Positions 31,886-63,502 of a DNA stretch of 63,502 nucleotides are shown here, piece by piece. Under the pieces are notes generated by a model, which saw nothing but the letters and a program-made list of their open reading frames with translations, was not told where the DNA came from and did not search any database. The first letter of the stretch is position 1. Each line of letters starts with the position of its first letter. Where the stretch lies: contig JAUCBJ010006624.1 in NCBI GenBank assembly GCA_032718475.1, positions 1 through 63,502 of the forward strand, read 5' to 3'. Position numbers and translations under genes: made by a program. Source of the stretch: Nemertoderma westbladi (Eukaryota; Animalia; Xenacoelomorpha).

Positions 31886-31948
31886 TCGAGAGACCACTTC
31901 ACTCCTCTAGACTCGAGCGTACCTTGTTCCTATTTCCTCGAACAACCG

Positions 31949-32350: not shown

Positions 32351-32360
32351 CATAACCACA

Positions 32361-32372
32361 TTAAAGGATATA
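32361..32372 (+). promoter_or_regulatory. Primer-binding-site position of copy A (TTAAAGGATATA), not tRNA-type
   Basis: Homologous to the 12 nt abutting the 5' LTR of copy B. Lacks TGG and is the exact reverse complement of the LTR 12-mer TATATCCTTTAA (31607-31618, 46323-46334). Confidence 0.75.
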
Positions 32373-33305: not shown

Positions 33306-34616
33306 CAGAGTTTATGCGATTATCCGCAACATTCATTCCCCAAGTTTGTTCCTACAGTAATTGTGTTTGTTATACATACCGCTATAGTTAAATTAACCCC
33401 GGTACTACACGGGCTGCTTGGCGTAGGTAAAGACTGGAGATTTTGTGCATCGGTCACTCCAGCAGATGCCGTGGTTCTTTTAGCTGTTCAAGTATATTTA
33501 ACTACTGATTATCTGTTGTACAAGTACTCGTACCTAATTTAGGGTTTAGTGTACAGTGCTTTCCGAGAGTAATTAGTGTAGGCATTATATTTGTGTTGTA
33601 AAGTGGTTGATAGGCACGTTCGATTAGCTCTATTAACTTCTAGGTAGGAACACTCCGTGATACATAACGTAGAACCTATAGCGATACGGCTATAGGTCGT
33701 CAGGCGGTGGTATTTTCCTATCTGGACAACGCAGTGTATTTACTACTACGTATTATTTTCAAATAACCGCAGTACCCTGTCCGTTGTAATAACCAGTTTT
33801 CTAACTCTTTGTTAGGCTGGTTTGTAGACTTCTTGTAAAATTACCCTAAAAATTCGTATTTTGTGTTTTTTGTAAATTTTTGTGTTTATTTAGAGATTGT
33901 AATCTCACCCGAATTGTACGTAATTTGTAGTATTAAGTAACTTAGGTAAATTATAATTATTTGTTTTAGAGTCCTATAAGTAACACTTCACTAAAAGCGC
34001 ACCGCTTTGCGTAGTGATTACCCCCCAGAAATAATAACATTTATTTCAACATTGACAAAACCCATTAAAACGGGTATATATATAATATAAATCAAATCTA
34101 ACGATTTATAAATAGTAGGCCTACCATACAACCATTAGGTCTCAATATCAGTTGGACTACTGCTCAAATAACGGTAAGAAAGTAAGTAAAGTAACAAAGT
34201 AACCCTAAAATTCAGAAATTCAATTATTTAAAATAATTGATATACCAGTATTTACGATAGGCCTATTATCTTTATTTCTATAAATTTAGGCTGAAATTAT
34301 ACCGGTACTTGTAATTAATTCTAGTCCAGAATTATATATACTACAAATTGTAAGCTGTATACCGGTATTCCCGATAGGCCTATTATATATTTATATATAT
34401 TTGTGCTAAAATTATACCGGTATTCTGAGATAAACCTAGTCTGTAATAATACTTATATATACTATAAGCATACCGGTATTTTAATATATTATATATATAT
34501 CACGCTACACTGAGTAGCAGTATCGGTAATTAATTACTAGGCTAGCAGTTAATACTGAATTACTAGACTTGCTTAGACTGTAATATAGCAGTAGGCATTC
34601 AACTGTACATACAAAT

Positions 34617-37600: not shown

Positions 37601-40600
37601 CAGAGAGAAGACACCGGAAAACAAGGTAAGTGAAAAACCCGTCTCTAGGAGAAAGGTAACACCAGTGTGTTATACCGATGACGGCGAAAGCCAGACTTCT
37701 CAAGGAGAAGATAGCGGGAAAGACACTGACAGATCTTATTATGTCAATAAAATGCCTAAAGATCAGGTGAGTAAATTCAAGTCTCGATCAAATGACCGGA
37801 GAGAACAGGTAAGAAAAACTCCTCCCACGTCTCCCAAGAGAATTCAGGTGAGAAAGCCCGAAGAAAGGGCAAGTGTACACAATGTGACTCAGAATAAGGT
37901 AAGTAACATCAAACCGAAATGTGCGCTGTGCGACGGGACCCACCATTTGAATAGGTGTGATGAATTTCTAAAGAAATCATTAACGGAGAGACGCGAAGTC
38001 ATGTGGGATAAGCGGTTATGTTATAATTGCCTCAGACAAGGACACCAACGGCGAACCTGTTTCTCTGACATAAGGTGTGCAAAGTGTGGTGCGAAACATC
38101 ATATCTTGTTGCACGCTGAATTCGATCGAAATAGTCCGAATCAGGTAAGTGATTCCGAGCTACATGTCCAATTCAGTGATGTGAACGACACTGATCAATC
38201 TGAGATGGAAGGATTCTATACAGACGAGTTCTCCGACGAAAACGAATCCTGTAACATGATAAATACCGCAGTGTATCGAGCGCTCACCTATGAAAAGGAT
38301 ACAGACAACGACTTCACTCTAACTACTTCTGAGCGACAACCATCTTGGAAAGAGCCATCTTCCAATGTAGGGATCCGAGAGTTTCCTGTGGTGCAAGTGA
38401 GGGTTCACGGACCTAAGAGGAGTTATGTAGTGAACGCCCTCCTTGACTCCGGTAGTACAGGAACATTCATCGACAAAGAGCTAGCCGAAGATATATTTGC
38501 TGGACAACTCAAGTTCCAAACTAAGCTCAACATGTCTGGCATAATGCAAGTTTGGAAATCTACAATAACAGCTGATTATTATGTAGGCGCGTTGTCCACC
38601 CCACAAGACGAACTAGGAGAACACAGCATAAGGTCAGTGAAAATGGTGGCTATAAAGAACTTCGCTACTACTCAAGCAGACCTTTATAATTGGGATGAGG
38701 ATGAGAGCATCCAACATCTTAACATACCTCGATTCCAGACTGATTATCCTGGAGTGCAAATACTCATCGGCCAAAACGCGCATGAGGCGCTGGAGACATT
38801 AGAGAAACGGCCTGCTCAACCGCAGCCCCTACAGACCTATGCGGTAAGAACTAGAGTAGGTTGGTACTTTACTGGCCCTTCCCGTAGAACACTCAGAGAA
38901 AGACTACCGCCAGAGAGCGTATGCCAGGTGAGTGAATGGGAAGATGATACCAGTGAGGGAGACAACTCAACTGAGGGAATTCCATACTCCTCAGATAATG
39001 ACGACGTTCACCAGCTTTTTGATGAAGAGAATACCATCGATCTCCTTAAGGAAAACGAAGCTTGGCAAAACCAAGTGAACTTATGTCAACTTCTCTATCC
39101 ATCTGAACGAGAAGCTTATAACGACGAGTTAAATGACGTCATTGAGCGTCATAATGCCAAGACTCGAGATGAACATGCTGTACGATTCTTTACGCAAGAG
39201 GCGGTAGAGCCCAATTCCTACGATAAAGCCTTGTCGGTGGAAGAGGAAAGGGCCAAGCAGATCCAAGAGACGACTACACGTTTCCTCAAAGATCAAGGAA
39301 GGTACGAAGTCGGTTTACCTTTTCGCAAGAGAGAACCGAAGTTCATCAATAACAGACCTTTGGCGGAAAAAAGAATCGCGCAACTCCATCGACGCCTTGC
39401 GGCTAATTCTTCAGCGAAAGCAATGTATCAAACACAGCTGGAAAAATTTATTAATAAGGGATACGCGGAGAGAGTACCGGAAGAAACACCTGTGACTGAA
39501 AGAACGTATTATTTAACTCACCATTACGTTCCTAAACCCGGTAAACCCAATGAAGTGAGAGTAGTGTTTGATGGCTCCGCTCTTTACATGGGTCAATCCC
39601 TTAACTCTGAATTGTTACCCGGACCCAACTTACTTCAATCTTTGTTGGGAATTCTTTTAAGATTGAGACAATATTCGATTGCTTTCGCCTCCGATATAGA
39701 AGGCATGTTCTTGCAAGTCAAGGTGTTGGATAGGGATCGGGATAGCTTACGATTTCTATGGTGGCCCGAAGGAGACCTCAACCAGAAACCGGTGGAGTAC
39801 TGGATGACCATCCAGGCCTTTGGGATAATCTCAAGCCCTTCCAACGCCTGTTCGGTAGTGCGTACCACTGCAGAGGACAACAGAGAGGCCTTCTCTAAGG
39901 AAGTGATCGACAACATCAAGAGAGACATATACATGGACGACAATCTGAAGTCCCTCCCATCAGTTGAGGAAGCCATTGAGGTCGCTAAGGGAACGGTAGA
40001 GTGCTTAAAAAGAGGTGGATTTCGATTAACCAAATTCACCAGCAACTCCCGTGAGTTTCTGGAGTCGATCCCTGCGGAAGATCGAGGGGCGAAAGATCTC
40101 GATTTGATCAAAGATGATCTGCCAGAGACCAAGACACTTGGCTTGAAATGGGACACAGAGCGAGATATTCTGTTTTTCCAACTAAAACAGCGAGATAATC
40201 CAGTTCGAACCAAACGGATTTGCTTAAGTATACTGAGCACTTATTTCGATCCATTGGGATTTATTAGCCCAGTTATATTGATTGCTCGTAGTTTGGTACA
40301 ACAAATGTGGCTTGAAAACCACTCATGGGACGATCCACTTAAGGGAGAATTATTGAAGCAGTGGATGAAATGGGAAGATTCTCTGCCAGCGATCGAAGAT
40401 TTTATAATTTCCCGTTCATATTTTGGTCATGTTCTCCCTACGTATTCCTATCAACTCCATGTGTTTGGAGACGCCAGCGATATGGGAATCGGTATAGTAG
40501 CCTACCTAAGAGTGGAAACTCCGGATGGAATCAAAGTCGCCTTGGTTACTTCTAAGGCATTAATCAACAACAAGTTGAAAGTTCCTCGAGCGGAGTTAAA

Positions 40601-42815
40601 AGCGGCTCTATACGCTACAGCCATCGGCCGGAATGTAACCGAACAGATTGACTATCCATTAGAGAAAACTGTCTATTGGACCGACGCTTTACTCGTGTTA
40701 GAGTATATAACCAATGAAGTCTGTCAGTTCAGCGTCTTCGTTACCAACAGGGTAGCCATCATACTTAGTCGCACGACGATGGACCAATGGAGACATTGCC
40801 CCGGAACGATTAATCCAGCAGACATCGCGTCCCGAGGAGCGACTCCCAAGGAATTGGTAAATACTCCCGAATGGTTAGGAGGACCCGACTTTCTCTACAG
40901 GGAAGAAGAAGAATGGCCTCCTCATCTCACAACAGCAGAGATCAGACAGGCCAAGGGAGCGGAGAAAGTTAAACCCAAAACTCGAGCGAGTAAATCGAAG
41001 TTGTTTAAACCTGCGGTTGATCTATCTGTATTATTTACTTCCGGAGAGGATGCTTTGGATCAGAAACCCACCGCCACGACTAAAGAAGTCTTGGAAATCC
41101 GTGACAAGGATTGGAAATCTGGAATACCAGATATCGCACAAGGACTCTCACCTCTCTTGCAGAGAGCGATACGTCACTACAGTTCCTGGAATCGGCTCTG
41201 TAAAGCTGTTACCTATTTGAAACGATGTTTTCATCATCGTTACTCCGGGACAAAGACCAATAGTGATGATGCTCCATCAACATCTGCACGAGTCCATGTT
41301 GTTAAAGATCTTCCTAAATACAAGATATCCGACAGGTTTCTAAAGGAAAAGATCAGTTACCAGGAGCATGATGAAACCAACAAACAGATGCTGAGACTTC
41401 TACAATGCTATGAGGATTCCGATAAGTATTTCCTGTTGTTAAGAAATCCACAGATGCGCTTAAGGGATCGCTTCTCTAGTACCATGATAGATGGGTTAAT
41501 ACGTGTTGGAGGTAGGCTAACCAACGCCCCATTATCCTTTGACACTAAGTTTCCCATCCTCATTAGAAATCTTGACATACAAATCAAGATAATTGTAGAT
41601 GTTCATAGCAAACTGTACCATGCTGGTAGAGAACGAGTTCTGAGCGAAATTCGAACTCGCTACTATTTTTATAAACCCCGTAGGGCTCTGAACCAAGTTC
41701 TTAGGAACTGCATACCCTGTAGGAAAGCATTCAGTAGGCCTTTAACACAGCGAGAGGCAGAATTACCTAGGGAAAGAGTAAGCTTCTATGAACCACCCTT
41801 TACTAATACCGGTGTGGATTTATTTGGCCCTATTGAAGTATATCGTGCCCGGACTATAGTCAAGAGATGGTGTGTCATCTTCGTTTGTATGACTTGTAGA
41901 GCTATCCATCTCGATATGGTAAACGATCTATCCACCAACAGCTTCGTGTTGAGTTTACGACGACAGATCGCTCGCTTCGGAACCAGTAACACGATGAGAT
42001 CGGATAAGGGAACGAACTTCATTGGCGCCAACAACGAAATTCAAGCTTACGTAAAGGACTGGAACAAAAGACAGGTGGACGATCAGCTAAGGATAACAGC
42101 GTCTAGCTGGACCTTCAACGCCGCCGACGCCCCTTGGTGGGGAGGAAGTTGGGAGAGATTGATTAGGAGCGTGAAGACTGCGTTCCACTTTATTGTGCCT
42201 TGTCGCGCTTATCTCACCGACGAACTATTGCGGACGTTAATGGAGGAAATCGCCGCCTATCTCAACGAAAGACCGCTTATGCCAGTCTCTTCAAATCCTG
42301 ATTCCCTGGAAGCGCTAACACCCGCGCACTTTCTACTGAAGAAACCCGTAGCCATGCTCCCGCGATCGGAGATCACAGACGGAGACGAGTACTGCCGTCG
42401 AACCTGGCAACTTATGCAGTTGCTATCCCGTCGTTTCGCTGACCATTTCGAGAAACATTACCTGCCCACTCTACAACTTCGAACTAAGTGGTTTGCGCAG
42501 CAAGAAAACGTCAGCGCTGGAGACATGGTGCTTATTGTGGACCCCGATCTCCCACGTAAGCGATGGCAAACAGGACGTATCATCGAGACTTATATCTCGA
42601 GCGATGGTTTGGTGCGATCAGTAGAGCTCGTCGTCATGCGGCGGAACTTTAAGAAACCAGGGATAGTCTTTGAGACTCAACAGCTCAATCGCCCAGTGGG
42701 ACGTTTATGTTTACTGGAAAGAGACAGAGAGCTCTCCGGAAACTATGGAAGGCAAGAAACTCTTCCCACGACCACTTCCCTAATCCAACCGACATCTAGG
42801 GACTCCCCAACTTAA
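34617..42815 (+). CDS. BEL/Pao gag-pol polyprotein, 2732 aa (Gag, protease, RT, RNase H, integrase)
   Basis: BEL-type capsid region (KFNGDEMKWLPF...EKLRYLIECLEG), triple knuckle (CALCDGTHHLNRC, CYNCLRQGHQRRTC, CAKCGAKHHILLH), protease LLDSGS, RT YMDD, RNase H VFGDAS...RAEL...WTDA, and integrase HHCC with GVDLFGP, SDKGTNF and WERLIRSVK. Confidence 0.97.
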   Translation: MSDTKQNLSDSLLDVTICDSDRGVEPSSRKFSSPPTVRKVIPPVVITEPRLVQHRRSIIGTRAQVKRDQEAAEQQQPASQELVTQRPSSSSSEDTVELTPERGAEMTDAVYTDPLLILPAAVLTRLLIAVEEHQIDWARSQRPTRDSYAGYTREEMKSMVESQWNFPGPGLPFDLSEAAWEDIHRMGVAKETIDPAVWKRSAAGYAQGFFSSIERLKEQLFQQPQGPQEQGLLLYQVRERILRIRLILSAFEEASKRRQDTSLQVAVKTWFQRVSLQVQGTAQWKAQLEERSTHGESTDATFSQVESEATSEKPHKRDAIDIYLSDYQRFLGDDELRRRLDGLSPNSEGTKLVLDAIDVEMRAANQAKFDEQLRLTRVQEEQVKKKRIEDRKAAAVAAAVAAAEAERKAAAAEAAAEAKAAVAAAVAAAEAERKAAAAEAAAEAKATVAAAVAAAEAERKVAAAEVAAEAKAAEAVAEAERRATEETTQLELENIQENQDCINKQLTASNMQMMNRSTPKRQGYTSSEEGDTTDTEGKGNRSRLSRRKRTFHRQKLPDLPPAVRRQLNSTNLGSTEPTDQIIKIERLPTIVDEPEIIRPVLEITPSVIDTPVLPEVTSKFPLHSTKLPVPRRTAPETVQVLGPERNIHNLSPVVHRPPATTLATPASAVEWVDEGRRGMDILLGQMQETVQQFKGTVRESRLELQEVQQSIALERDKLVNTQRGIPPPSVTMCQPVRSEVSHAQGVEPTRIYTASEVETPIVNPIKGNYRPVDNDIPYRTDHNPRNLYTDNSILNNTMAQESFTRQMARTEARQAVKVGEIVKFNGDEMKWLPFNEYYKDNIQNSVLSNGEKLRYLIECLEGSPKLMALKFIGHPDGLRQVWDTLNIRYGNRNNIAGYLYAKLVAPRKFISSGIIEFSDEIQEICRQLDWLGKSHEYQNTMVIRAVASTLPKGGVGTRWDKKVLYMMEQQRRDPTMADLMSFLDGEVKLQLLKLSREKTPENKVSEKPVSRRKVTPVCYTDDGESQTSQGEDSGKDTDRSYYVNKMPKDQVSKFKSRSNDRREQVRKTPPTSPKRIQVRKPEERASVHNVTQNKVSNIKPKCALCDGTHHLNRCDEFLKKSLTERREVMWDKRLCYNCLRQGHQRRTCFSDIRCAKCGAKHHILLHAEFDRNSPNQVSDSELHVQFSDVNDTDQSEMEGFYTDEFSDENESCNMINTAVYRALTYEKDTDNDFTLTTSERQPSWKEPSSNVGIREFPVVQVRVHGPKRSYVVNALLDSGSTGTFIDKELAEDIFAGQLKFQTKLNMSGIMQVWKSTITADYYVGALSTPQDELGEHSIRSVKMVAIKNFATTQADLYNWDEDESIQHLNIPRFQTDYPGVQILIGQNAHEALETLEKRPAQPQPLQTYAVRTRVGWYFTGPSRRTLRERLPPESVCQVSEWEDDTSEGDNSTEGIPYSSDNDDVHQLFDEENTIDLLKENEAWQNQVNLCQLLYPSEREAYNDELNDVIERHNAKTRDEHAVRFFTQEAVEPNSYDKALSVEEERAKQIQETTTRFLKDQGRYEVGLPFRKREPKFINNRPLAEKRIAQLHRRLAANSSAKAMYQTQLEKFINKGYAERVPEETPVTERTYYLTHHYVPKPGKPNEVRVVFDGSALYMGQSLNSELLPGPNLLQSLLGILLRLRQYSIAFASDIEGMFLQVKVLDRDRDSLRFLWWPEGDLNQKPVEYWMTIQAFGIISSPSNACSVVRTTAEDNREAFSKEVIDNIKRDIYMDDNLKSLPSVEEAIEVAKGTVECLKRGGFRLTKFTSNSREFLESIPAEDRGAKDLDLIKDDLPETKTLGLKWDTERDILFFQLKQRDNPVRTKRICLSILSTYFDPLGFISPVILIARSLVQQMWLENHSWDDPLKGELLKQWMKWEDSLPAIEDFIISRSYFGHVLPTYSYQLHVFGDASDMGIGIVAYLRVETPDGIKVALVTSKALINNKLKVPRAELKAALYATAIGRNVTEQIDYPLEKTVYWTDALLVLEYITNEVCQFSVFVTNRVAIILSRTTMDQWRHCPGTINPADIASRGATPKELVNTPEWLGGPDFLYREEEEWPPHLTTAEIRQAKGAEKVKPKTRASKSKLFKPAVDLSVLFTSGEDALDQKPTATTKEVLEIRDKDWKSGIPDIAQGLSPLLQRAIRHYSSWNRLCKAVTYLKRCFHHRYSGTKTNSDDAPSTSARVHVVKDLPKYKISDRFLKEKISYQEHDETNKQMLRLLQCYEDSDKYFLLLRNPQMRLRDRFSSTMIDGLIRVGGRLTNAPLSFDTKFPILIRNLDIQIKIIVDVHSKLYHAGRERVLSEIRTRYYFYKPRRALNQVLRNCIPCRKAFSRPLTQREAELPRERVSFYEPPFTNTGVDLFGPIEVYRARTIVKRWCVIFVCMTCRAIHLDMVNDLSTNSFVLSLRRQIARFGTSNTMRSDKGTNFIGANNEIQAYVKDWNKRQVDDQLRITASSWTFNAADAPWWGGSWERLIRSVKTAFHFIVPCRAYLTDELLRTLMEEIAAYLNERPLMPVSSNPDSLEALTPAHFLLKKPVAMLPRSEITDGDEYCRRTWQLMQLLSRRFADHFEKHYLPTLQLRTKWFAQQENVSAGDMVLIVDPDLPRKRWQTGRIIETYISSDGLVRSVELVVMRRNFKKPGIVFETQQLNRPVGRLCLLERDRELSGNYGRQETLPTTTSLIQPTSRDSPT

Positions 42816-45880: not shown

Positions 45881-47091
45881 TGTAAAAGCTTTTGCTGAAT
45901 TGTCCGGTTATTTTTCCTTATTTTTCCCGTAAAATACTCTGTAGTTGGTTTACCAGGCATAAAAAGGCCGTGTCCTTGCTGTACTGGTGTTTTAGCGGAC
46001 ATAAAAGCTATTTCTTCTGTATTTGTACTTTAGAGGACATAATCCGTAATTCCGTGACGTAAAAGCTCGATACTCTTGAAAACAGTGTCGCTACCATGAC
46101 GACGGCTAGCAGCTGATATTGCCACGTCGACGTTTCTTTGTTTCTCTGTTCTCTCGTTGTTCAGGTTGACCAATCAGAGCGTTTGTTGTCTCTGTGTTGG
46201 AGGTATATACAGAAACTCAGTAGTTCAGTGTTATGTTTTTGCCCAGAGCCTAAGAACCGGCTTTTGGCACCTCCGTGTTTTCAGTTTTTAGTCTTACACT
46301 AGTAGGTTTAATTATAAGGACATATATCCTTTAACCTGGCTTTTAATCGCTGCTAACTGATCATACATACTGACTGCTGAAACATTGCAAACTCATAACA
46401 ATCAGTGTTTTCAGTTGTTGTTTTATACTGCTATTTACTGTCAGTTCTTCATAATATGGTTGATGAATTATTATATTTGGAATAACGATAAATAACCCCG
46501 AAACCCAATATTCTTGATATACCGAAGGTAAGAGAGAAAGGTTACCAGATAACGATTGTGACTTATGTTAAAGTGGTTTGAAGTGAATCTAATGTTATTT
46601 GATAGACCCTACATGAGTCAGTCTGTGTTCCTTTTATATGTGACTAAAATCAGTGAAGATTGGCAGATTAGTGTGCAGTATTGTGCAGCATTGTGTATGA
46701 GTGAGTCTGTTAAAGAAGCAATTCCTAAAGAATGCGCCATATATGTGAATTATAATTAAGCCATATCGTTGTGAGTAGTTTAAGTCATAACTCTGTTTAT
46801 ATAGATAAAGTGCCACGTCCTAAAGGAACTGTTAATATTCCCGAAGGTGAATAATATTGTCAGAGATTATATAATACTGTCAGTCGAATAATACATTAGG
46901 CTTACATAGCAATAAAATTAAACCGTCGAACCGAATCTCCCGGGAATATCCAGCGGGTGAATGATCGCGCACAGATTGGTTTCGACTAGTGTAGTGAATC
47001 AAATACTTGTCATAGACTAAAAACCGATTTAATATCTAGAAGACATCTTAATTTGGTGGGTTAAACTGCCAAAGGTCTGAAAGCGCAAACA
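45881..47091 (+). repeat. 3' LTR of copy A (1211 bp)
   Basis: TGTAAAAGC...GCAAACA. Contains CCAAT (46170), TATATA (46204) and TCAGT initiator-like motifs. Confidence 0.93.
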
Positions 47092-48605
47092 GTGGAGCTT
47101 CGCAAATGTCGTGATCTTTGCGAAATATTTTGTGTTTACCAATACTATAGATGGAGCTTTTCAAATGTCGCGATCCTTGCGAAATATTTTGTGTTTACCA
47201 ATACTATAGGTGGAGCTTTGCAAACGTCTCGATCTTCGCGAAATATTTTGTGTTTACCAATACTATAGATGGAGCTTTTCAAATGTCGCGATCCTTGCGA
47301 AATATTTTGTGTTTACCAATACTATAGGTGGAGCTTTGCAAACGTCTCGATCTTCGCGAAATATTTTGTGTTTACCAATACTATAGATAGAGCTTCGCAA
47401 ATGTCGCTATCTTCGCGAAATATTTTGTGTTTACCAATACTATAGATAGAGCTTCGCAAATGTCGCAATCTTCGCGAAATATTTTGTGTTTACCAATACT
47501 ATAGGTGGAGCTTTGCAAACGTCTCGATCTTCGCAAAATATTTTGTGTTTACCAATACTTTAGGTGGAGCTTCGCAAACGTCATGATCTTCGTGACATAT
47601 TTTGTGTTTACCAATACTATAGGTGGAGCTTCGCAAATGTCGTGATCTTTGCGAAATATTTTGTGTTTACCAATACTATAGATGGAGCTTTGCAAACGTC
47701 TCGATCTTCGCAAAATATTTTGTGTTTACCAATACTTTAGGTGGAGCTTCGCAAACGTCTCGATCTTCGCAAAATATTTTGTGTTTACCAATACTTTAGG
47801 TGGAGCTTCGCAAACGTCATGATCTTCGTGACATATTTTGTGTTTACCAATACTATAGGTGGAGCTTTGCAAACGTCTCGATCTTCGCGAAATATTTTGT
47901 GTTTACCAATACTATAGATAGAGCTTCGCAAATGTCGCAATCTTCGCGAAATATTTTGTGTTTACCAATACTATAGATGGAGCTTCGCAAATGTCGTGAT
48001 CTTTGCGAAATATTTTGTGTTTACCAATACTATAGGTGGAACTTCGCAAATGTCGCGATCTTCGCGATATTTTGTGTTTACCAATACTATAGATAGAGCT
48101 TTTCAAATGTCGCGATCCTTGCGAAATATTTTGTGTTTACCAATACTATAGGTGGAGCTTCGCAAATGTCGCGATCTTCGCGAAATATTTTGTGTTTAAC
48201 AATACTATAGGTGGAGCTTCGCAAATGTCGCGATCTTTGCGAAATATTTTGTGTTTAACAATACTATAGGTGGAGCTTCGCAAATGTCGCAATCTTCGCG
48301 AAATATTTTGTGTTTACCAATACTATAGATAGAGCTTCGCAAATGTCACAATCTTCGCGAAATATTTTGTGTTTACCAATACTATAGGTGGAGCTTTGCA
48401 AACGTCTCGATCTTCGCAAAATATTTTGTGTTTACCAATACTTTAGGTGGAGCTTCGCAAACGTCATGATCTTCGTGACATATTTTGTGTTTACCAATAC
48501 TATAGGTGGAGCTTTGCAAACGTCTCGATCTTCGCGAAATATTTTGTGTTTACCAATACTATAGATAGAGCTTCGCAAATGTCGCAATCTTCGCGAAATA
48601 TTTTG
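47092..48605. repeat. 59-bp satellite, left part (GTGGAGCTTCGCAAATGTCGCGATCTTCGCGAAATATTTTGTGTTTACCAATACTATAG)n
   Basis: Period of 59 (47121, 47180, 47239), about 25 copies. Confidence 0.97.
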
Positions 48606-49803
48606 TGTTCGCGCTTTCAGACCTTTGGCAGTTTAACCCGCCAAATTAGGATGTCTTCTAGATAATAAATCACCTTTAGCCTATGACAAGTATTTAATTC
48701 ACTACACTAGTCGAAACCAATCTGTGCGCGATCATTCACCCGCTGGATATACCCGGGAGATTGGGTTCGACGGCTTAATTTTATTGCTATGTAAGCCTAA
48801 TGTATTATTCGACTGACAGTATTATATAATCTCTGACAATATTATTCACCTTCGGGGAATATTAACAGTTCCTTTAGGACGTGGCGCTCTATCTATATAA
48901 ACAGAGTTATGACTTAAACTACTCACAACGATATGGCTTAGTTATAATTCACATATATGGCGCATTCTTTAGGAAATGCTTCGTTATCAGTCTCACTCAT
49001 ACACAATGCTGCACAATACTGCACACTAATCTGCCGATCTTCACTGATTTTAGTCACATATAAAAGGAACACGGACCGAATCATGTAGGGTCTATCAAAT
49101 AACATTAGATTCACTTCAAACCACTCAACATAGGTCGCAATCATTTATCTGTAACCCTTCTCTCTTACCTTCGGTATATCAAGAATATTGGGTTTTCGGG
49201 GTTATTTGTCGTTATTCCAAATATAATAATTCATCAACCATATTATGAAGAACCGACAGTAAATAGCAGTATAACAATATAAAGTATGCACAGGTTGTTT
49301 GATTAGGTATGGTATGTTATGTTGTGATAAATGCAGTGATCAGACATCAGATAACGGATATATGTCCTTATAATTAAGCCTACTAGTGTAGGACTAAAAA
49401 CTGAAAACACGGAGGTGCCAAAAGCCGGTTCTTAGGCTCTGGGCAAAACATAACACTGAACTACTGAGTTTCTGTATACACCTCTAACACAGAGACAACA
49501 AACGCTCTGATTGGTCAACCTGAACAACGAGAGAACAAAGAAACAAAGAAACGTCGACGTGGCAATATCAGCTGCTAGCCGTCGTCATGGTAGCGACACT
49601 GTTTTCAAGAGTATCGAGCTTTTACGTCACGGAATTACGGATTATGTCCTCTAAAGTACAAATACAGAAGAAATAGCTTTTATGTCCGCTAAAACACCAG
49701 TACAGCAAGGACACGGCCTTTTTATGCCTGGTAAACCAACTACAGAGTATTTTACGGGAAAAATAAGGAAAAATAACCGGACAATTCAGCAAAAGCTTTT
49801 ACA
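48606..49803 (-). repeat. 3' LTR of copy B (1198 bp)
   Basis: TG...CA termini on the minus strand with the PPT at 49804-49811. Confidence 0.93.
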
Positions 49804-52640: not shown

Positions 52641-55600
52641 TTACGTACGTAATAAACACGAATATATTGCACATGTTTGAAGGATTAGGGAGGTGGTCGT
52701 GGGAAGAGAATCTTGCCTTCCACAGTTTCCGGAGAGTCCCCCATTCCCTTCCGGTAAACACAAACGACCGACTGGGTGATTGAGTCGCTGCATCCCGAAT
52801 ACAATTCCAGGTTTCCTCTTCGTCCTGGAATAGTGACGATAGAAACATCGCTCTAGGTACACGACGGCCTTACAAAGCCGATTCCAGGAGCTATAGTGGT
52901 CCGTCGCTCCCTGCAGGAGAGGTGAGAGTCCCTGCGAGACGTCTGATGTTCCAGAGCTCCAATCGCTCTCTCTGATCTTCATGAAGGATCCACTCGCGGT
53001 GGGGAGGTCCAGATCCACGGCGTCGTCCCTGGCAATATGTAATACCGACAGATCTATCCCGGGTTCAAATAACTCCGATCCACCCGTCCAGGTTTTAGGT
53101 TTGACTTTCTCCGCTCCCTTGGCTGGTCTAATCTCAGTCGGAGTAAGATGGGGAGGCTGTTCATCCTCCTTACTCAGGAAGTCGGGTTCACCTAACCGGT
53201 CTGTAGTATCTGTCAGTTCTTGAGGAGTTGCTCCTCTGGAAGCGATGTCAGTTGGATTAAACTTCTTGGGGCAATATCTCCATTGATCTACATTGGAGCT
53301 AATATTGTCATTATCTGAGGAGTATGGTGTTCCCTCAGTTGGGTCGTCTCCCTCACTAGTATCATCTTCCCATTCACTCACCTGGCAGACGCGATCTTGA
53401 AGCAGTCTTTCTCTGAGCGTTCTTCGGGAAGGTCCAGTAAGGTACCAACCAACTCTAGTTCTTACCGCATAGGTCTGAAGTGGTTGCGGTTGAGTAGGTC
53501 GTTTCTCTAATGTCTCCAGCGCCTCATGCGCGTTTTGGCCGATGAGTATTTGCACTCCAGGATAATCAGTCTGGAATCGAGGTATCTTAAGATGTTGGAT
53601 ACTCTCATCCTCGTCCCAATTATAAAGGTCTGCTTGAGTAGTAGCGAAGTTCTTTATTGCCACCATTTTGACTGACCTTATACTGTGTTCTTCTAGTTTA
53701 TCCTGTGGAGTGGACAACTCACCTATATAATAGTCGGCAGCCACAGCAGATTTCCAAACCTGCATGATCCCTGACATGTTTAGCTTGGTTCGGAACTTGG
53801 GTTGTCCAGCAAAGATGTCTTCGGCTAGTTCTTTATCGATGAATGTTCCTGTGCTGCCGGAGTCCAGGAGGGCGTTCACTATATAGCTCTTCTGAGGTCC
53901 GTGGACCCGTAACTGGACTACAGGAAATTCTCGGATTCCTATATTGGAAGTTGGCGCTTTCCAAGATGGTTGTTGATCGGAAGTAGTTAGGGTGAGGTCG
54001 CTGTCTGTGTCTTTCTCGTACATGAGTGCTCGATACACTGCGGTGGTGTTTATTAAGTAACAGGATTCGTTTTCGTCGGAGAACTCGTCCGTATAGAATC
54101 CTTCCATCTCAGATTGATCAGTGTCGTTCACATCACTGAATTGGACATGTAGTTCGGAATCACTCACCTGACTCGGGCTGTTTCGTTCGAATTCCGTGTG
54201 CAACAAGATATGATGTTTTGCGCCGCACTTTGCACACCTTGCGTCGGAGTAACAGGTTCGCCGTTGGTGTCCTCGTCTGAGGCAATTATAACACAACCGC
54301 TTATCCCACATGACTTCACGTCTATCCTTTAGTGATTTCCTCAGGAATTTATCACACGCATTTAAACGGTGGGGCCCGTCGCACAGCACACATTTCGGCT
54401 TGATGTTACTTACTTTAACCTGTGCTATGTGGTGCACACTTGTTCTTTCCTCGGGCTTTCTCACCTGAATTCTTTTAGGAGACGTAGGAGGGGTTTTTTG
54501 TAACGGTTCCCTTCTGTCATTGGGTCGAGACTTGGATTTACTTACCTGGTCTTTAGGCGTTTTATTGACATAATAAGATCTTTCAGTGTCTTTCCCGCTG
54601 TCCTCTCCTTGAGAGGTTTGGCTTTCGCCGTCGTCTGTATAACACACTGGTGTTACCCTTCTCCTAGAAACGGGTTTCTCACTTACCTTGTTTTCCAGTG
54701 TCTTCTCTCTGGACTGCCTTAGGAGCTGTAATTTCACTTCTCCATCTAAGAATGACATGAGATCAGCCATGGTAGGGTCTCGTCGTTGTTGTTCCATCAT
54801 ATATAACACCTTCTTGTCCCAGCGTGTACCTACTCCACCCTTGGGCAAAGTAGATGCTAAGGCTCCTACAACCATAGAATTCTGGTATTCATGAGACTTA
54901 CCTAACCAATCTAGTTGTCTACAGATCTCCTGAATCTCATCGGAAAACTCTATAATCCCGCTGCTAAGAAACTTTCGGGGTGCCATTAATTTCGCATATA
55001 AATACCTAGCTATGTTAGTCCTATTACCATACCTGATGTTTAGTGTATCCCAAACTTGTCTTAATCCATCTGGATGTCCAATAAATTTTAACGCCATTGA
55101 CTTGGGAGATCCTTCCAAGCACTCGATGAGGTATCTAAGTTTTTCTCCATTAGATAGTACAGAGTTCTGTATGTTATCTTTGTAATATTCATTAAAAGGT
55201 AACCATTTCATCTCATCTCCATTGAATTTGACTATCTCTCCCACCTTCACTGCTTGACGGGCTTCGGTTCTAGCCATTTGACGCGTAAAACTTTCTTGGG
55301 CCATCGTGTTATTTAATATCGAGTTATCGGTATATAAATTTCTCGGATTATGATCAGGTCTATAGGGAATGTCATTATCAACAGGTCTATAATTACCCTT
55401 AATAGGGTTCACTATAGGAGTTTCTACTTCGCTAGCAGTATAGATGCGTGTAGGCTCCACACCTTGCGCATGAGATACTTCAGACCTAACAGGTTGACAC
55501 ATTGTTACAGGGGGTGGTGGTATACCCTTTTGTAAATTTACTAATTTATCGCGCTCTAGCGCGATATTTTGCTGCACTTCTTGCAACTCTAACTTACTTT

Positions 55601-56744
55601 CCCTCACTGTTCCCTTTAAATGTTGGACAGTCCCTTCCAACTCTCGGACCTGTTGGGAGGAGCGTATCCGATTCTCCTTCATCTCTCCGAGGAGAATATC
55701 CATCCCCCGCCGTCTCTCGTCTACCCAATCAACCGCCGAAACGGGATCCGCCAACGTCGTAGCGGGCAGACGAGGGACAACGGGCGACAAATTTGGAATA
55801 TTTCGCTCGGGGTCCAGGACCTGAACTGTCTCCTGGGCAGTTCTACGGGGCACAGGTAGCTTAGTGCTATGCAGAGGGAATTTATAGGTAGCTTCAGGGA
55901 GCACAGGTGTATCTATTACCGAAGGGGTGATTTCAAGAACAGGCCTACTTATTTCAGGCTCATCTACTATAGTAGGGAGTCTTTCTATTGTAATTATTTG
56001 GTCTGTGGGTTCTGTACTCTCTAAGTTGGTGTTATTTAGTTGCCTTCTAACAGCTGGAGGCAAATCAGGCAATTTCTGACGGTGGAATGTTCTTTTACGT
56101 CTGCTTAGGCGGGATCGATTTCCTCCGCCTTCAGTGTCGGTGGTATCGCCTTCCTCAGATGATGTATAACCTTGTCGTTTGGGAGTAGATCGATTCATCA
56201 TCTGCATATTACTAGCTGTTAACTGTTTATTAAAGTTATCTTGCCTCTCTTGAAGATTTTCCAACTCTAGTTGGGTTGTCTCTTCAGATGCCCTCCGTTC
56301 TGCTTCTGCCACTGCTATCTTTCTTTCCGCTTCTGCCGCTGCCGCTTTTATTGCTGCAGCTGCCGCTTTTGCCTCTGCCGCTGCCTCTGCTGCCTTTCTT
56401 TCCGCTTCTGCCGCTGTCACTGCCGCTGCTGCTGTCTTTCTATCTTCTATACGTTTTTTCTTTACTTGTTCTTCTTGAACCTTGGCGATGCGGAGTTGTT
56501 CATCGAATTTAGCTTGGTTCGCCGCTAACCTATCCACATCAATTGCATCTAACACAAGTTTGGCTCCTTCGCTGTTAGGGCTAAGTCCCTCCAGCCTTCT
56601 CCTCAACTCGTCATCTCCTAAAAAACGCTGATAGTCTGACAGATAGATGTCAATGGCATCCCTCTTATGCGGTTTCTCTGCTGTCACTTCGCTCTCGGTT
56701 GTATCTAGTAGACTGTCTGACAGGTTTTGCTTTGCGTCAGACAT
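52641..56744 (-). CDS. Internally deleted BEL polyprotein, 1367 aa: Gag plus protease, lacking RT, most of RNase H and integrase
   Basis: Aligns to copy A with three large in-frame deletions. Keeps the capsid region, the triple knuckle and LLDSGS. Confidence 0.93.
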   Translation of the reverse strand: MSDAKQNLSDSLLDTTESEVTAEKPHKRDAIDIYLSDYQRFLGDDELRRRLEGLSPNSEGAKLVLDAIDVDRLAANQAKFDEQLRIAKVQEEQVKKKRIEDRKTAAAAVTAAEAERKAAEAAAEAKAAAAAIKAAAAEAERKIAVAEAERRASEETTQLELENLQERQDNFNKQLTASNMQMMNRSTPKRQGYTSSEEGDTTDTEGGGNRSRLSRRKRTFHRQKLPDLPPAVRRQLNNTNLESTEPTDQIITIERLPTIVDEPEISRPVLEITPSVIDTPVLPEATYKFPLHSTKLPVPRRTAQETVQVLDPERNIPNLSPVVPRLPATTLADPVSAVDWVDERRRGMDILLGEMKENRIRSSQQVRELEGTVQHLKGTVRESKLELQEVQQNIALERDKLVNLQKGIPPPPVTMCQPVRSEVSHAQGVEPTRIYTASEVETPIVNPIKGNYRPVDNDIPYRPDHNPRNLYTDNSILNNTMAQESFTRQMARTEARQAVKVGEIVKFNGDEMKWLPFNEYYKDNIQNSVLSNGEKLRYLIECLEGSPKSMALKFIGHPDGLRQVWDTLNIRYGNRTNIARYLYAKLMAPRKFLSSGIIEFSDEIQEICRQLDWLGKSHEYQNSMVVGALASTLPKGGVGTRWDKKVLYMMEQQRRDPTMADLMSFLDGEVKLQLLRQSREKTLENKVSEKPVSRRRVTPVCYTDDGESQTSQGEDSGKDTERSYYVNKTPKDQVSKSKSRPNDRREPLQKTPPTSPKRIQVRKPEERTSVHHIAQVKVSNIKPKCVLCDGPHRLNACDKFLRKSLKDRREVMWDKRLCYNCLRRGHQRRTCYSDARCAKCGAKHHILLHTEFERNSPSQVSDSELHVQFSDVNDTDQSEMEGFYTDEFSDENESCYLINTTAVYRALMYEKDTDSDLTLTTSDQQPSWKAPTSNIGIREFPVVQLRVHGPQKSYIVNALLDSGSTGTFIDKELAEDIFAGQPKFRTKLNMSGIMQVWKSAVAADYYIGELSTPQDKLEEHSIRSVKMVAIKNFATTQADLYNWDEDESIQHLKIPRFQTDYPGVQILIGQNAHEALETLEKRPTQPQPLQTYAVRTRVGWYLTGPSRRTLRERLLQDRVCQVSEWEDDTSEGDDPTEGTPYSSDNDNISSNVDQWRYCPKKFNPTDIASRGATPQELTDTTDRLGEPDFLSKEDEQPPHLTPTEIRPAKGAEKVKPKTWTGGSELFEPGIDLSVLHIARDDAVDLDLPTASGSFMKIRESDWSSGTSDVSQGLSPLLQGATDHYSSWNRLCKAVVYLERCFYRHYSRTKRKPGIVFGMQRLNHPVGRLCLPEGNGGLSGNCGRQDSLPTTTSLILQTCAIYSCLLRT

Positions 56745-58728
56745 GCTTATGTGTACAGTTGAATGTCTACTGCTGTATTACAGTCTGTGCAAGTCTAGTA
56801 ACTCAGTATCACTGTTAGCCTAGTAATTAATTACCGATACTGCTACTCAGTGTAGCGTGATATATATATAATATATTAGAATACTGGTATGCTTATAGTA
56901 TATATAAGTATTATTACAAACTAGTTTATCACATGGGGATTCACAGAATACCGGTAGGTAATTTTAGCACAAATATATATAAATATATAATAGGCCTATC
57001 GTGAATACTGGTATGCAGTTTACACTTATAGTGTATATATATAAGTATAATTACAGACTAGAATTAATTACAGAATACCGGTATGATTTCAACCTAAAAT
57101 TTATAGAAATAAATATAATAAGCCTATTGTAAATACCGGTATGTCAATTATTTTAGAATAATTGAATTTCTGAATTTTAAGGGAAGGGTTACTTGGTTAC
57201 CTTAACTTACTTTATTGCCGTTATTTAAGCAGTAGTCCAACTGATATTGAGACCTAATGGTTGTATGGTAGGCCTACGATTTATAAATCGTTAGATTTGA
57301 TTTATAATATATATATACCCGTTTAATGGGTTTTGTCAATGTTGAAATAAATGTTATTATTTCTGGGGGTAATCACTACACAAAGCGGTACGCTTTCAGT
57401 GAAGTGTTACGTACAGGACACTAAAACAAATGATTCTAATTTACCTAAGTTACTTAATACTACAAATTACGTACAATTCGGGTGAGATTACAATCTCTAA
57501 ATAAACACAAAAAATTTACAAAAACACAAAATACGAAATTTCAGGGTAATTTTACAAGAAGTCTACAAACCAGCCTAACAAAGGGTTAGAATCTGGTTAT
57601 TACAACGGACAGGGTACTGCGGTATTTGAAAATAATACGTAGTAGTAAATACACTGCGTTGTCCAGATAGGAAAATACCACCGCCTGACGACCTATAGCC
57701 GTATCGCTATAGGTTCTACGTTATGTATCACGGAGTGTTCCTACCTAGAAGTTAATAGAGCTAATCGAACGTGCCTATCAACCACTTTACAACACAAATA
57801 TAATGCCTACACTAATTACTTTCGGAAAGCACTGTACACTAAACCCTAAATTAGGTACGAGTACTTGTATAACATATAATCTGTAGTTAAATATACTTGA
57901 ACAGCTAAAAGAACCACGGCATCTGCTGGAGTGACCGATGCACAAAATCACCAGTCTTTACCTACGCCAAGCAGCCCGTGTAGTACCGGGGTTAATTTAA
58001 CTATAGCGGTATGTATAACAAACACAATTACTGTAGGAACAAACTTGGGGAATGAATGTTGCGAATAATCACATAAACTCTGAATAATAAATATTACGCT
58101 ACGCGTACAAACTACTCAAACAAAATGCAGACCAAACACTGACAGACTACTATCAAGCCTAAACAAACTACGGTATATGCAGACTCCGAAATAATTAGGT
58201 AGTATGCGTTCTAACCCAGTAGTACGACTTATTCTTTAATTGGGGGTTTACCTTACAGCATTCGCTGCCCCTACTTCCTAACCGTTCTTTATCGGACAAG
58301 TGATCTACACACGCTGCAATCCGCTCAGGCCCAATAACAGCCAGACAACTATCCAGCCTACAAATTGTCTGTACAATCTGATCAGGCTTACACGCCTTCT
58401 GTTCAATACTGGCCTACAAACAAATAAAACTTGACAGAAATAAGTAAAAATCTCAATAAAAAACCAGGGCGGCCTTTCCCTGATTAAGTACTAAGACCTA
58501 CCGGTATATAATTATCAAAATCGAATAATACTAATGTACTTATACTGGAAGTACCGGTTAGGACAGTTGGGCCTACGGACCTACAGAAGTACCGGTTCTG
58601 GTAGTTGGACCTACGGACCTACGGCAGTACCGGTTCTGGCGGTTGGGCCTACTGACCTAATGAAGTACCGTTCAGGTTTACCGGTTGACCGGTACTTACA
58701 ACTTTATTGCTTACTGCAATAAAGAAGC

Positions 58729-58740
58729 TATATCCGTTAT
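58729..58740 (-). promoter_or_regulatory. Primer-binding-site position of copy B (ATAACGGATATA), not tRNA-type
   Basis: Abuts the 5' LTR end ...GCGAACA with no gap. Exact reverse complement of the LTR 12-mer TATATCCGTTAT (59392-59381 and 49362-49351). Confidence 0.8.
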
Positions 58741-59833
58741 TGTTCGCGCTTTCAGACCTTTGGCAGTTTAACCCGCCAAATTAGGATGTCTTCTAGATAA
58801 TAAATCACCTTTAGCCTAATGTAAGCCTAATGTATTATTCGACTGACAGTATTATATAATCTCTGACAATATTATTCACCTTCGGGGAATATTAACAGTT
58901 CCTTTAGGACGTGGCGCTCTATCTATATAAACAGAGTTATGACTTAAACTACTCACAACGATATGGCTTAGTTATAATTCACATATATGGCGCATTCTTT
59001 AGGAAATGCTTCGTTATCAGTCTCACTCATGCACAATGCTGCACAATACTGCATACTAATCTGCCGATCTTCACTGATTTTAGTCACATATAAAAGGAAC
59101 ACGGACCGAATCATGTAGGGTCTATCAAATAACATTAGATTCACTTCAAACCACTCAACATAGGTCGCAATCATTTATCTGTAACCCTTCTCTCTTACCT
59201 TCGGTATATCAAGAATATTGGGTTTTCGGGGTTATTTGTCGTTATTCCAAATATAATAATTCATCAACCATATTATGAAGAACCGACAGTAAATAGCAGT
59301 ATAACAATATAAAGTATGCACAGGTTGTTTGATTAGGTATGGTATGTTATGTTGTGATAAATGCAGTGATCAGACATCAGATAACGGATATATGTCCTTA
59401 TAATTAAGCCTACTAGTGTAGGACTAAAAACTGAAAACACGGAGGTGCCAAAAGCCGGTTCTTAGGCTCTGGGCAAAACATAACACTGAACTACTGAGTT
59501 TCTGTATACACCTCTAACACAGAGACAACAAACGCTCTGATTGGTCAACCTGAACAACGAGAGAACAAAGAAACAAAGAAACGTCGACGTGGCAATATCA
59601 GCTGCTAGCCGTCGTCATGGTAGCGACACTGTTTTCAAGAGTATCGAGCTTTTACGTCACGGAATTACGGATTATGTCCTCTAAAGTACAAATACAGAAG
59701 AAATAGCTTTTATGTCCGCTAAAACACCAGTACAGCAAGGACACGGCCTTTTTATGCCTGGTAAACCAACTACAGAGTATTTTACGGGAAAAATAAGGAA
59801 AAATAACCGGACAATTCAGCAAAAGCTTTTACA
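58741..59833 (-). repeat. 5' LTR of copy B (1093 bp)
   Basis: Matches 48606-49803 with a 105-bp deletion near 58818. Confidence 0.93.
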
Positions 59834-62800
59834 TTTTGTGTTTACCAATACTATAGATGGAGCTTCGCAAATGTCGTGATCTTTGCGAAATATTTTGTGT
59901 TTACCAATAATATACATGGAGTTTTGCAAATGTCGCAATCGTCGCGAAATATTTTGTGTTTACCAATAATATACATGGAGTTTTGCAAATGTTGCAATCG
60001 TCGCGAAATATTTTGTGTTTACCAATACTATAGATGGAGCTTCGCAAATGTCGTGATCTTTGCGAAATATTTTGTGTTTACCAATAATATACATGGAGTT
60101 TTGCAAATGTCGCAATCGTCGCGAAATATTTTGTGTTTACCAATAATATACATGGAGTTTTGCAAATGTTGCAATCGTCGCGAAATATTTTGTGTTTACC
60201 AATACTATAGATGGAGCTTCGCAAATGTCGCAATCTTCGCGAAATATTTTGTGTTTACCAATACTATAGGTGGAGCTTTTCAAATGTCGCGATCCTTGCG
60301 AAATATTTTGTGTTTACCAATACTATAGATAGAGCTTCGCAAATGTCGCAATCTTCGCGAAATATTTTGTGTTTACCAATACTATAGGTGGAGCTTTGCA
60401 AACGTCTCGATCTTCGCAAAATATTTTGTGTTTACCAATACTTTAGGTGGAGCTTCGCAAACGTCATGATCTTCGTGACATATTTTGTGTTTACCAATAC
60501 TATAGGTGGAGCTTTGCAAACGTCTCGATCTTCGCGAAATATTTTGTGTTTACCAATACTATAGATGGAGCTTCGCAAATGTCGTGATCTTCGCGAAATA
60601 TTTTGTGTTTACCAATACTATAGGTGGAGCTTTGCAAACGTCTCGATCTTCGCGAAATATTTTGTGTTTACCAATACTATAGATAGAGCTTCGCAAATGT
60701 CGCAATCTTCGCGAAATATTTTGTGTTTACCAATACTATAGATGGAGCTTCGCAAATGTCGTGATCTTCGCGAAATATTTTGTGTTTACCAATACTATAG
60801 ATAGAGCTTCGCAAATGTCGCAATCTTCGCGAAATATTTTGTGTTTACCAATACTATAGGTGGAGCTTTGCAAACGTCTCGATCTTCGCAAAATATTTTG
60901 TGTTTACCAATACTTTAGGTGGAGCTTCGCAAACGTCATGATCTTCGTGACATATTTTGTGTTTACCAATACTATAGGTGGAGCTTTGCAAACGTCTCGA
61001 TCTTCGCGAAATATTTTGTGTTTACCAATACTATAGATGGAGCTTCGCAAATGTCGTGATCTTCGCGAAATATTTTGTGTTTACCAATACTATAGGTGGA
61101 GCTTTGCAAACGTCTCGATCTTCGCGAAATATTTTGTGTTTACCAATACTATAGATAGAGCTTCGCAAATGTCGCAATCTTCGCGAAATATTTTGTGTTT
61201 ACCAATACTATAGATGGAGCTTCGCAAATGTCGTGATCTTCGCGAAATATTTTGTGTTTACCAATACTATAGATAGAGCTTCGCAAATGTCGCAATCTTC
61301 GCGAAATATTTTGTGTTTACCAATACTATAGGTGGAGCTTTGCAAACGTCTCGATCTTCGCAAAATATTTTGTGTTTACCAATACTTTAGGTGGAGCTTC
61401 GCAAACGTCGCGATCTTCGCGAAATATTTTGTGTTTACCAATACTATAGATAGAGCTTCGCAAATGTCGCAATCTTCGCGAAATATTTTGTGTTTACCAA
61501 TACTATAGGTGGAGCTTTGCAAACGTCTCGATCTTCGCAAAATATTTTGTGTTTACCAATACTATAGATAGAGCTTCGCAAATGTCGCAATCTTCGCGAA
61601 ATATTTTGTGTTTACCAATACTATAGATAGAGCTTCGCAAATGTCGCAATCTTCGCGAAATATTTTGTGTTTACCAATACTATAGGTGGAGCTTCGCAAA
61701 CGTCGCGATCTTCGCAATATTTTGTGTTTACCAATACTATAGGTGGAGCTTTGCAAACGTTGTGATCTTCGCAATATTTTGTGTTTACCAATACTATAGA
61801 TGGAGCTTGGCAAATGTCGTGATCTTTGCGAAATATTTTGTGTTTACCAATAATATACATGGAGTTTTGCAAATGTCGCAATCGTCGCGAAATATTTTGT
61901 GTTTACCAATAATATACATGGAGTTTTGCAAATGTTGCAATCGTCGCGAAATATTTTGTGTTTACCAATACTATAGATGGAGCTTTTCAAATGTCGCGAT
62001 CCTTGCGAAATATTTTGTGTTTACCAATACTATAGATAGAGCTTCGCAAATGTCGCAATCTTCGCGAAATATTTTGTGTTTACCAATACTATAGGTGGAG
62101 CTTTGCAAACGTCTCGATCTTCGCAAAATATTTTGTGTTTACCAATACTTTAGGTGGAGCTTCGCAAACGTCATGATCTTCGTGACATATTTTGTGTTTA
62201 CCAATACTATAGGTGGAGCTTTGCAAACGTCTCGATCTTCACGAAATATTTTGTGTTTACCAATACTATAGATGGAGCTTCGCAAATGTCGTGATCTTCG
62301 CGAAATATTTTGTGTTTACCAATACTATAGGTGGAGCTTTGCAAACGTCTCGATCTTCGCGAAATATTTTGTGTTTACCAATACTATAGATAGAGCTTCG
62401 CAAATGTCGCAATCTTCGCGAAATATTTTGTGTTTACCAATACTATAGATGGAGCTTCGCAAATGTCGCGATCTTCGCGATATTTTGTGTTTAACAATAC
62501 TATAGGTGGAGCTTCATAAACGTCACAATCTTCGTGACATATTTTGTGTTTACCAATACTATAGTTGGAGCTTCGCAAACGTCGCGATCTTCACGATATT
62601 TTGTGTTTACCAATACTATAGGCAGAGCTTCGCAAACGTCGCGATCTTTGCGAAATATTTTGTGTTTACCAATAATATAGATGGAGTTTCGCAAATGTCG
62701 CAATCGTCGCGAAAAATTTTGTGTTTACCAATACTATAGATGGAGTTTCACAAATGTCGCGATCTTCGCGATATTTTGTGTTTAACAATACTATAGATGG

Positions 62801-63215
62801 AGCTTCGCAAATGTCGTGATCTTTGCGAAATATTTTGTGTTTACCAATAATATAGATGGAGTTTCGCAAATGTCGCAATCGTCGCGAAAAATTTTGTGTT
62901 TACCAATACTATAGATGGAGTTTCACAAATGTCGCGATCTTCGCGATATTTTGTGTTTAACAATACTATAGATGGAGCTTCGCAAATGTCGTGATCTTTG
63001 CGAAATATTTTGTGTTTACCAATAATATAGATGGAGTTTCGCAAATGTCGCAATCGTCGCGAAAAATTTTGTGTTTACCAATACTATAGATGGAGTTTCA
63101 CAAATGTCGCGATCTTCGCGATATTTTGTGTTTACCAATACTATAGATGGAGCTTCGCAAATGTCGCGATCTTTGCGAAATAGTTTGTGTTTACCAATAC
63201 TATAGGTGGAACTTT
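59834..63215. repeat. 59-bp satellite, right part (about 57 copies with local higher-order units)
   Basis: Same monomer and phase as 47092-48605, with 175-bp trimers near 62660-63190. Confidence 0.97.
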
Positions 63216-63502
63216 GATAAAAAAAATTCTCAACCTTTAATAATATTATTTTATTAATGTGTCCGAGTTCGCTCGACCTAGTAGTAGTACTATTTATTAA
63301 TACCATTATAGGTACAGCTACGCAAAAATAGCAAAATTTCTGGAAGGCCTACACAAATACATGGACTTCTAGAATACAATTTTATACCATCTGTATGTAT
63401 ATATATACCATTCTAGAATTCTGTGAACAATACTAATACTAATATTGTCATATACATACTATAGCACATGTTAGCTATTTTATTTAAAAAAAAAAAATTT
63501 CT

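Follow-up and report, generated by a model that had tools for sequence, protein, structure and literature searches.

How does an LTR retrotransposon begin to copy its RNA when its primer-binding site (PBS) does not start with TGG and is instead complementary to its own LTR? A BEL/Pao family raises this question in the window, by which we mean the whole 63,502-nt stretch of DNA that was analysed. The best reading, to which we give a probability of roughly 0.7, is that the family would self-prime with its own LTR RNA in the manner of Tf1. The earlier note had proposed self-priming for this family, and at the level of sequence the proposal is supported by the absence of TGG, the polarity, the co-variation and the pairings found in relatives.

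Three copies (A, B and C) of one LTR family lie in the window:

59833-48606, minus strand: copy B element
58741-59833, minus strand: copy B 5' LTR, 1093 bp, TG...CA
48606-49803, minus strand: copy B 3' LTR, with the 12-mer at 49351-49362 and the third site at 48982-48988
52641-56777, minus strand: copy B ORF, 1378 aa, from Gag (DUF1759) to the protease region
31341-31885, plus strand: copy A 5' LTR fragment, 545 bp, with the 12-mer TATATCCTTTAA at 31607-31618
34584-42815, plus strand: copy A gag-pol ORF, 2743 aa, open
45881-47091, plus strand: copy A 3' LTR, 1211 bp, whole, with the 12-mer at 46323-46334
46709-46715, plus strand: third site GTTAAAG of the copy A 3' LTR, followed by the hairpin arm from 46739 and AATAAA at about 46911
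1629-2844, plus strand: copy C 3' LTR, with an A-type 12-mer at 2072-2083 and an A-type third site at 2462-2468

We take copy B to be young because its LTRs are near-identical (99.8% over 1015 nt plus 78/78, leaving aside 105 bp missing from the 5' LTR) and a 5-bp target duplication, CAAAA, surrounds it within a 59-bp satellite. Downstream of its ORF, deletion has removed RT together with most of RNase H and integrase, which makes copy B non-autonomous. The 105 bp absent from its 5' LTR include AATAAA and are present in the 3' LTRs. This gap (58818/58819 against 48684-48788) falls between short CATAG repeats; in copy B the missing bases hold the only AATAAA downstream of the 12-mer, which its 3' LTR keeps, and their loss from the 5' LTR would abolish premature polyadenylation. 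Copy B sits inside an array of the satellite, and the copy A 3' LTR abuts the same array (47092-48605, 59834-63216).

Copy A is rearranged at its 5' end, where the LTR fragment is followed by 472 bp of unrelated sequence unique to the window (31886-32357), then ACA, then the PBS. The fragment lies within an ORF (30477-31346, 31886-32357) that had no match in a Pfam search and presumably resembles a Mutator-type transposase. Of copy C only the 3' LTR is in the window, and its PBS is outside. The window also contains a THAP/P-element-type transposase ORF of 834 aa (15562-18066) and a PACT-domain exon (8229-8792); the PACT-domain ORF matches fish proteins at only 44-60%.

That the family is BEL/Pao, as had been claimed, is borne out by Pfam domains, motif order and homologues. 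A Pfam profile search gave PF03564, PF05380, PF17921 and PF18701 above the cut-off, and the domains of the copy A ORF are DUF1759, Peptidase_A17, Integrase_H2C2 and DUF5641. Copy A has the PR-RT-RH-INT order. In its ORF we read what we take to be DUF1759, a zinc knuckle, protease, RT (YMDD at 1783), RNase H-type (acidic motifs at 1960-2081), integrase and DUF5641 motifs. Among the matches listed (at least 120), every homologue has PF05380, the closest proteins are BEL/Pao polyproteins at 42-44% identity, and the named homologues come from Nematostella, Patiria, Ruditapes and fish. Other hallmarks are TGT...ACA LTR ends, a purine run before the 3' LTR and the 5-bp duplication around copy B. The Pol is thus BEL/Pao and not the Ty3/gypsy chromovirus Pol of the Tf1/sushi group. 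We placed the family by its Pol sequence, despite a PBS that departs from the ICTV description: there is no 18-nt site for tRNA-Arg or tRNA-Gly and no TGG after the LTR.

The sites on which the priming argument turns are these:

58729-58740, minus strand: copy B PBS ATAACGGATATA, the first 12 nt after the LTR, no TGG
59381-59392, minus strand: copy B candidate self-primer TATATCCGTTAT, in the 5' LTR at LTR position 442
32361-32372, plus strand: copy A PBS TTAAAGGATATA, preceded by ACA only
58702-58724, minus strand: hairpin right behind the PBS, 9 bp, CTTTATTGC/GCAATAAAG

In copy B the LTR ends in GCGAACA (58747-58741), the PBS is directly next, and its exact complement recurs in the 3' LTR at 49362-49351; all coordinates given before for this arrangement are correct. 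The match, exactly 12 nt, begins with the base that directly follows the LTR. The copy A complement, TATATCCTTTAA, is found in both of its LTRs and also in copy C, which the earlier note had not listed. For copy A that note was right about the position of the PBS and the 12-mer. In the window, though, no intact LTR precedes this PBS; there is only the 545-bp fragment and then the 472 bp. The two PBSs differ at positions 1 and 5, and both changes are mirrored in the LTRs of A and, in addition, of C. The polarity also suits priming, as had been stated. Cognate duplexes have energies of -13.3 and -11.6 kcal/mol, compared with -7.3 when the partners are swapped. Only these two PBS/LTR alleles occur in the window, and both have a 12-nt complement at offset 0, within the sequence definition of a Tf1-type site (an exact LTR complement of at least 10 nt at offset 0-5).

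Such a match is rare by chance. Only 23 of 20,000 order-2 Markov LTRs gave a complement of 12 nt or more to the copy B PBS, and among the 8,912 internal positions of copy B just one, the very first, has a 12-nt LTR complement. In a fold model of RNA that starts at the 12-mer, the primer-PBS helix has a mean probability of 0.97 and the fold a z-score of -3.2.

We compared contigs of four public runs (X1, X3, X4 and X5) with the copy B leader; these are contigs, and their depth does not equal copy number. In three of the four runs both A-type changes lie inside contigs that cross the B LTR-PBS junction: contigs with the two changes number 46 and 50 in X1, 18 and 19 in X3, and 1 in X5, with none among the X4 contigs. 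The public contigs therefore supply the A-type LTR-PBS junction that is missing from the window, with both alleles at the LTR end, and they do not join the LTR site and the PBS of one copy. At the LTR site, contigs of all four runs depart from the A reference at 46333 or 46335, and one X5 contig has the copy B 12-mer unchanged. Contig depth also falls after 46335; since the short stretch accounts for part of this through an edge effect, we relied instead on the loose contig ends and on the divergence between the A and B LTRs. The X5 contigs, which are RNA only by our guess, had no splice-like joint. When metagenomes were scanned with a 19-nt LTR pattern, the 25 loci obtained were all chance matches of 22 nt or less, and a viral contig collection gave no relative.

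A chance match or an assembly artefact, which the AT-rich sequence and the rearranged 5' end of copy A might suggest, deserves almost no weight. The probability is about 1e-3 for one allele, and there is a second matched allele, independent runs and nine relatives (see below). Public contigs, Markov null and relatives already exclude it.

A host tRNA half or fragment as primer is a more serious alternative, and still a highly improbable one. ARAGORN found 0 tRNAs in the window. With G-U pairs allowed, the two PBSs resemble the complements of what we take to be the consensus anticodon loops of Lys(UUU) and Asn(GUU). Priming by half-tRNAs does exist in Copia lineages (PMC6317226). However, a separate tRNA would be needed for each allele and for each of the 8 distinct sequences of the relatives, and the exact cis complements would go unexplained, above all where they span predicted splice junctions. 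The sole partner in view for the PBS is the element's own 12-mer, with the right polarity.

Under Tf1-like self-priming, the 12-mer, located close to the 5' end of the genomic RNA, would anneal to the PBS 640-750 nt downstream. The RNA would be cut just 3' of the 12-mer, probably by the element's RNase H, and DNA synthesis would run from the new 3'-OH through U5. The 12-mer and the PBS would stay matched because the primer would afterwards be copied into the PBS. All four steps are modelled on Tf1, for which Atwood-Moore reportedly dealt with primer retention in 2006. Priming fixes the right end of the LTR DNA, a few bases beyond CA, and the 3' end of the primer must therefore pair just past CA.

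The 12-mer has a second putative partner within the LTR:

59012-59018, minus strand: third co-varying site GATAACG, pairing with nt 7-13 of the 12-mer region
58965-58988, minus strand: 3' arm of the predicted locking hairpin, pairing with -18 to +5 around the 12-mer start (59410-59388)

The third site lies at about +387 in the LTR from the 12-mer (about 390 nt downstream); its sequence is GATAACG in B and, in both A and C, GTTAAAG. It has the same two changes as the 12-mer, and a 7-bp helix with nt 7-13 is preserved. A and B differ at just 23 of the 480 columns here, which makes it improbable that drift produced two exact compensations (post hoc estimate, about 3e-4). With the lock arm at +415 to +440 from the 12-mer, the three LTRs fold in the model into a rod of about 490 nt, although folds of 700 nt are unreliable; double changes occur in 4 of 155 predicted rod pairs, from three sequences only. 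The lock arm is stronger than shuffles (0, 0 and 2 of 200 match it). As an isolated duplex it is unexceptional among LTR windows, of which 1/119, 6/118 and 28/120 are equally strong, and we therefore treat the locking hairpin as a prediction. In the relatives, a PBS-like lock site is 3-7 nt long and not above chance.

In the fold model the primer-PBS helix has a probability of 0.97 as long as the RNA begins no more than 16 nt before the 12-mer, and of about 0.02 once it begins 18 nt or more before it. On one reading, the 5' copy of the 12-mer is predicted to be free while the 3' copy, with U3 attached, is locked in the hairpin; the 3' LTR 12-mer would then be hidden by its upstream sequence in the ~490-nt hairpin and would leave the PBS to the 5' copy. 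On the other reading, an RNA start further upstream would block priming.

The third site can also mean that the 12-mer is selected for structure alone. An alternative is that the pairing is a regulatory RNA structure, serving RNA circularisation, packaging, translation or the control of poly(A), with something else as the true primer. The second co-varying partner and the long predicted rod speak for this, and so does the hairpin behind the PBS, one strand of which (58702-58724) is also complementary to the AATAAA site of the LTR (~46905-46925, -8.5 kcal/mol), possibly a case of poly(A) occlusion. But the complement begins no more than 5 nt from the LTR end, the place at which priming sets the end of the DNA. 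In 11 of 11 cases its length is 11-12 nt, it takes the place of TGG throughout the clade, and no other primer is in view. We regard a purely regulatory role as unlikely.

Divergence between the A and B LTRs jumps at the 12-mer: the 442 columns upstream contain 5 substitutions, and the 98 columns that follow nt 7 contain 37, along with 12 gaps. This jump and the loose contig ends at the end of the 12-mer would fit a minus-strand transfer point at the 3' end of the primer, although a free loop would look similar.

Relatives from other DNA (15 loci and 20 stretches) are all host contigs inside MAGs. These bacterial MAGs (L026-L040, G001-G005) contain animal host contigs with whole BEL/Pao elements, which is contamination; G001 alone has 13 matches. 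Nine clade members have a readable LTR-PBS junction: L026, L027, L028, L029, L031, L032, L033, L034 and L073. We set the LTR ends by hand for L026, L028, L032 and L033, where contigs are cut. Dropped before counting for an unreadable LTR-PBS junction were L030, L035, L037-L040, L068/L080, L069/L082, L070/L081, L071, L072, L074 and L075. L036, with a non-TGG site and too little of its LTR for testing, was left out, as was a nested 331-bp LTR pair in L033 with no Pol assigned and a complement of 4 nt or less.

None of the nine testable members has a TGG site, and eight have an exact 11-nt self-complement at offsets 0-5. For seven of the nine, the 11-nt complement appears only when a GT-AG junction within the LTR is bridged, and in one (L031) it is contiguous. 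The remaining member, L027, pairs at 10 of 11 across such a junction when read by eye; the exact search scored 8. The predicted junctions have a GTRAGT or GTATGT donor and a pyrimidine-rich acceptor, with introns of 76-1022 nt. Shuffled PBSs reached 11 nt in 6 of 3,600 trials and cross-pairs in 2 of 132, both of them L028 against L033, which have a common 11-mer. Between L029 and L034 both partners change together (CAC/GTG against TAA/TTA). Two pairs, L029/L034 and L028/L033, are closely related, which leaves 8 distinct words and about 7 lineages among the nine relatives. L031 and L026 have offsets of 4-5 nt, a long distance for a priming site. A longer pairing that reaches past the 11-12 nt core found no support in a Fisher test (p 0.19 across 8 lineages).

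In an RT tree of 41 rows, built without named BEL/Pao references (Sinbad/Sailor, Suzu, Dan, Flow), the window element and all nine relatives fall in a 29-row clade with support of 99/95, and on the midpoint root the window element is sister to the other 28 rows, a position that would suit either the loss of an intron or its absence from the outset in the window family. L063, L064, L066 and L067 are outside the clade in the tree, and L065 is 97% identical to L064; all five of these outside elements have TGG 0-1 nt after the LTR. It is likely, judging from these sequences, that the clade of the window element primes copying with its own RNA.

L031 (6091-6410) has its contiguous self-complement in a 320-bp LTR and is placed next to spliced relatives (92/82, weak support), a placement that suggests intron loss. 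L029 is inserted in a tandem array, like copy B. The window family needs no splice-built primer: the 12-mer is contiguous and no canonical junction improves the match. Strong 3' splice-acceptor-like sites lie upstream of its 12-mer at LTR positions 284, 366, 404 and 411 (46130-46295), and a strong donor-like site at LTR position 648.

A wider account is more tentative, and we think it rather doubtful as a whole: a BEL/Pao clade reaching from cnidarians to fish may have dropped tRNA priming once and may prime with 11-12 nt of its own LTR RNA. The primer in the 3' LTR would be kept silent in most members by an intron, the primer being joined by the host spliceosome, and in the window family, where it is contiguous, by a co-evolving LTR hairpin that needs upstream U3.

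The earlier note cautioned that the 12-mer may not be the extreme 5' end of the RNA, and this caveat stands. In the window family TATA-like boxes are at -119 (A only) and -10 (both alleles), not near -30 of the 12-mer; in the relatives TATA-like words are at -26 (L034), -29 (L031), -97 (L026) and about -220 (L032). The positions in L034 and L031 would fit a cap-terminal primer, and those in L026 and L032 an internal one. An RNA start 18 nt or more upstream would count against the self-priming model because the fold model then loses the primer-PBS helix.

The internal position implied by the only clear TATA words of L026 and L032 would suit a primer that is encoded by the element and acts in trans, namely a short transcript of a 5', 3' or solo LTR by itself, or a second packaged genome, cut after the 12-mer. 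In L029 and L034 the spliced 11-mer is followed at once by AATAAA, so that a short transcript of either LTR would end near it, and the window family is very abundant in the public runs. On the other hand, the AATAAA of the window family is about 590 nt downstream of the 12-mer, free trans-priming in a mixed population would uncouple the PBS and the LTR site, and copy B, young and recently mobile, keeps a perfect cis match with the rarer allele. We consider a trans primer improbable, if a shade less so than the regulatory alternative, and prefer self-priming in cis.

According to PMC8742986, BEL/Pao elements use tRNA primers and their replication is poorly understood. The earlier note was aware of no self-priming case among them, and we found no report in the open literature either (subscription papers, Repbase Reports and GyDB were outside the scope). 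The parts available of PMC5445492, PMC5443660, PMC6934838, PMC3601003 and PMC3286476 contain no BEL/Pao self-priming, and a term search of PMC3118150, PMC554778, PMC8556966 and PMC6238403 gave no mention of a PBS.

Tf1 demonstrably primes its own reverse transcription, and the same is predicted of a few Gypsy and plant Copia lineages. If our reading is true, a whole clade in animals would have made the switch, as one more independent origin. Such elements would depend neither on the supply of tRNAs nor be open to silencing by tRNA fragments, and the switch would explain how PBS annotation based on tRNAs can miss them. What the model predicts is specific: RNA that ends at one named base, splicing of the relatives at named junctions and a hairpin switch. 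New here are the contrast between ingroup and outgroup on independent DNA and the third co-varying site in the window family.

The window family is like the Belpaoviridae of the ICTV in its LTRs (0.2-1.2 kb), single gag-pol ORF, PR-RT-RH-INT order, PPT and animal host. It differs in having a 12-nt self-complementary site where an 18-nt PBS for tRNA-Arg or tRNA-Gly is described, and in a length of about 15 kb (if copy A were whole) against 4.2-10 kb (PMC8742986). For the TAR lineage of plant Ty1/copia (Houba, Osr-1) self-priming was predicted by the same criterion, a complement of at least 10 nt beginning 0-5 nt after the LTR (PMC6317226); that lineage is plant Copia and of separate origin. The closest parallel in mechanism is the Ty3/gypsy group of Tf1/Tf2 (S. 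pombe), Tj1 (S. japonicus), Tf1/sushi and Tcn1, in which no tRNA is used and, as in the window family, the PBS complements the element's own LTR (over 11 nt there; PMC7175516, PMC4600332 and PMC5341516). In Tf1 the PBS pairs with bases 1 to 11 of the RNA, and RNase H makes its cut between base 11 and base 12 (PMC7175516). The Tf1 primer is the first 11 nt of the transcript. For the window 12-mer the TATA-like words do not suit such a cap-terminal place, and the fold model allows the helix for RNAs that begin within 16 nt of it. Compared with the Tf1 group, the window family belongs to a different superfamily, BEL/Pao, has a primer-PBS distance of 640-750 nt, and adds a third co-varying site and a predicted locking hairpin, while 7 of its BEL/Pao relatives have the complement only across a GT-AG junction.
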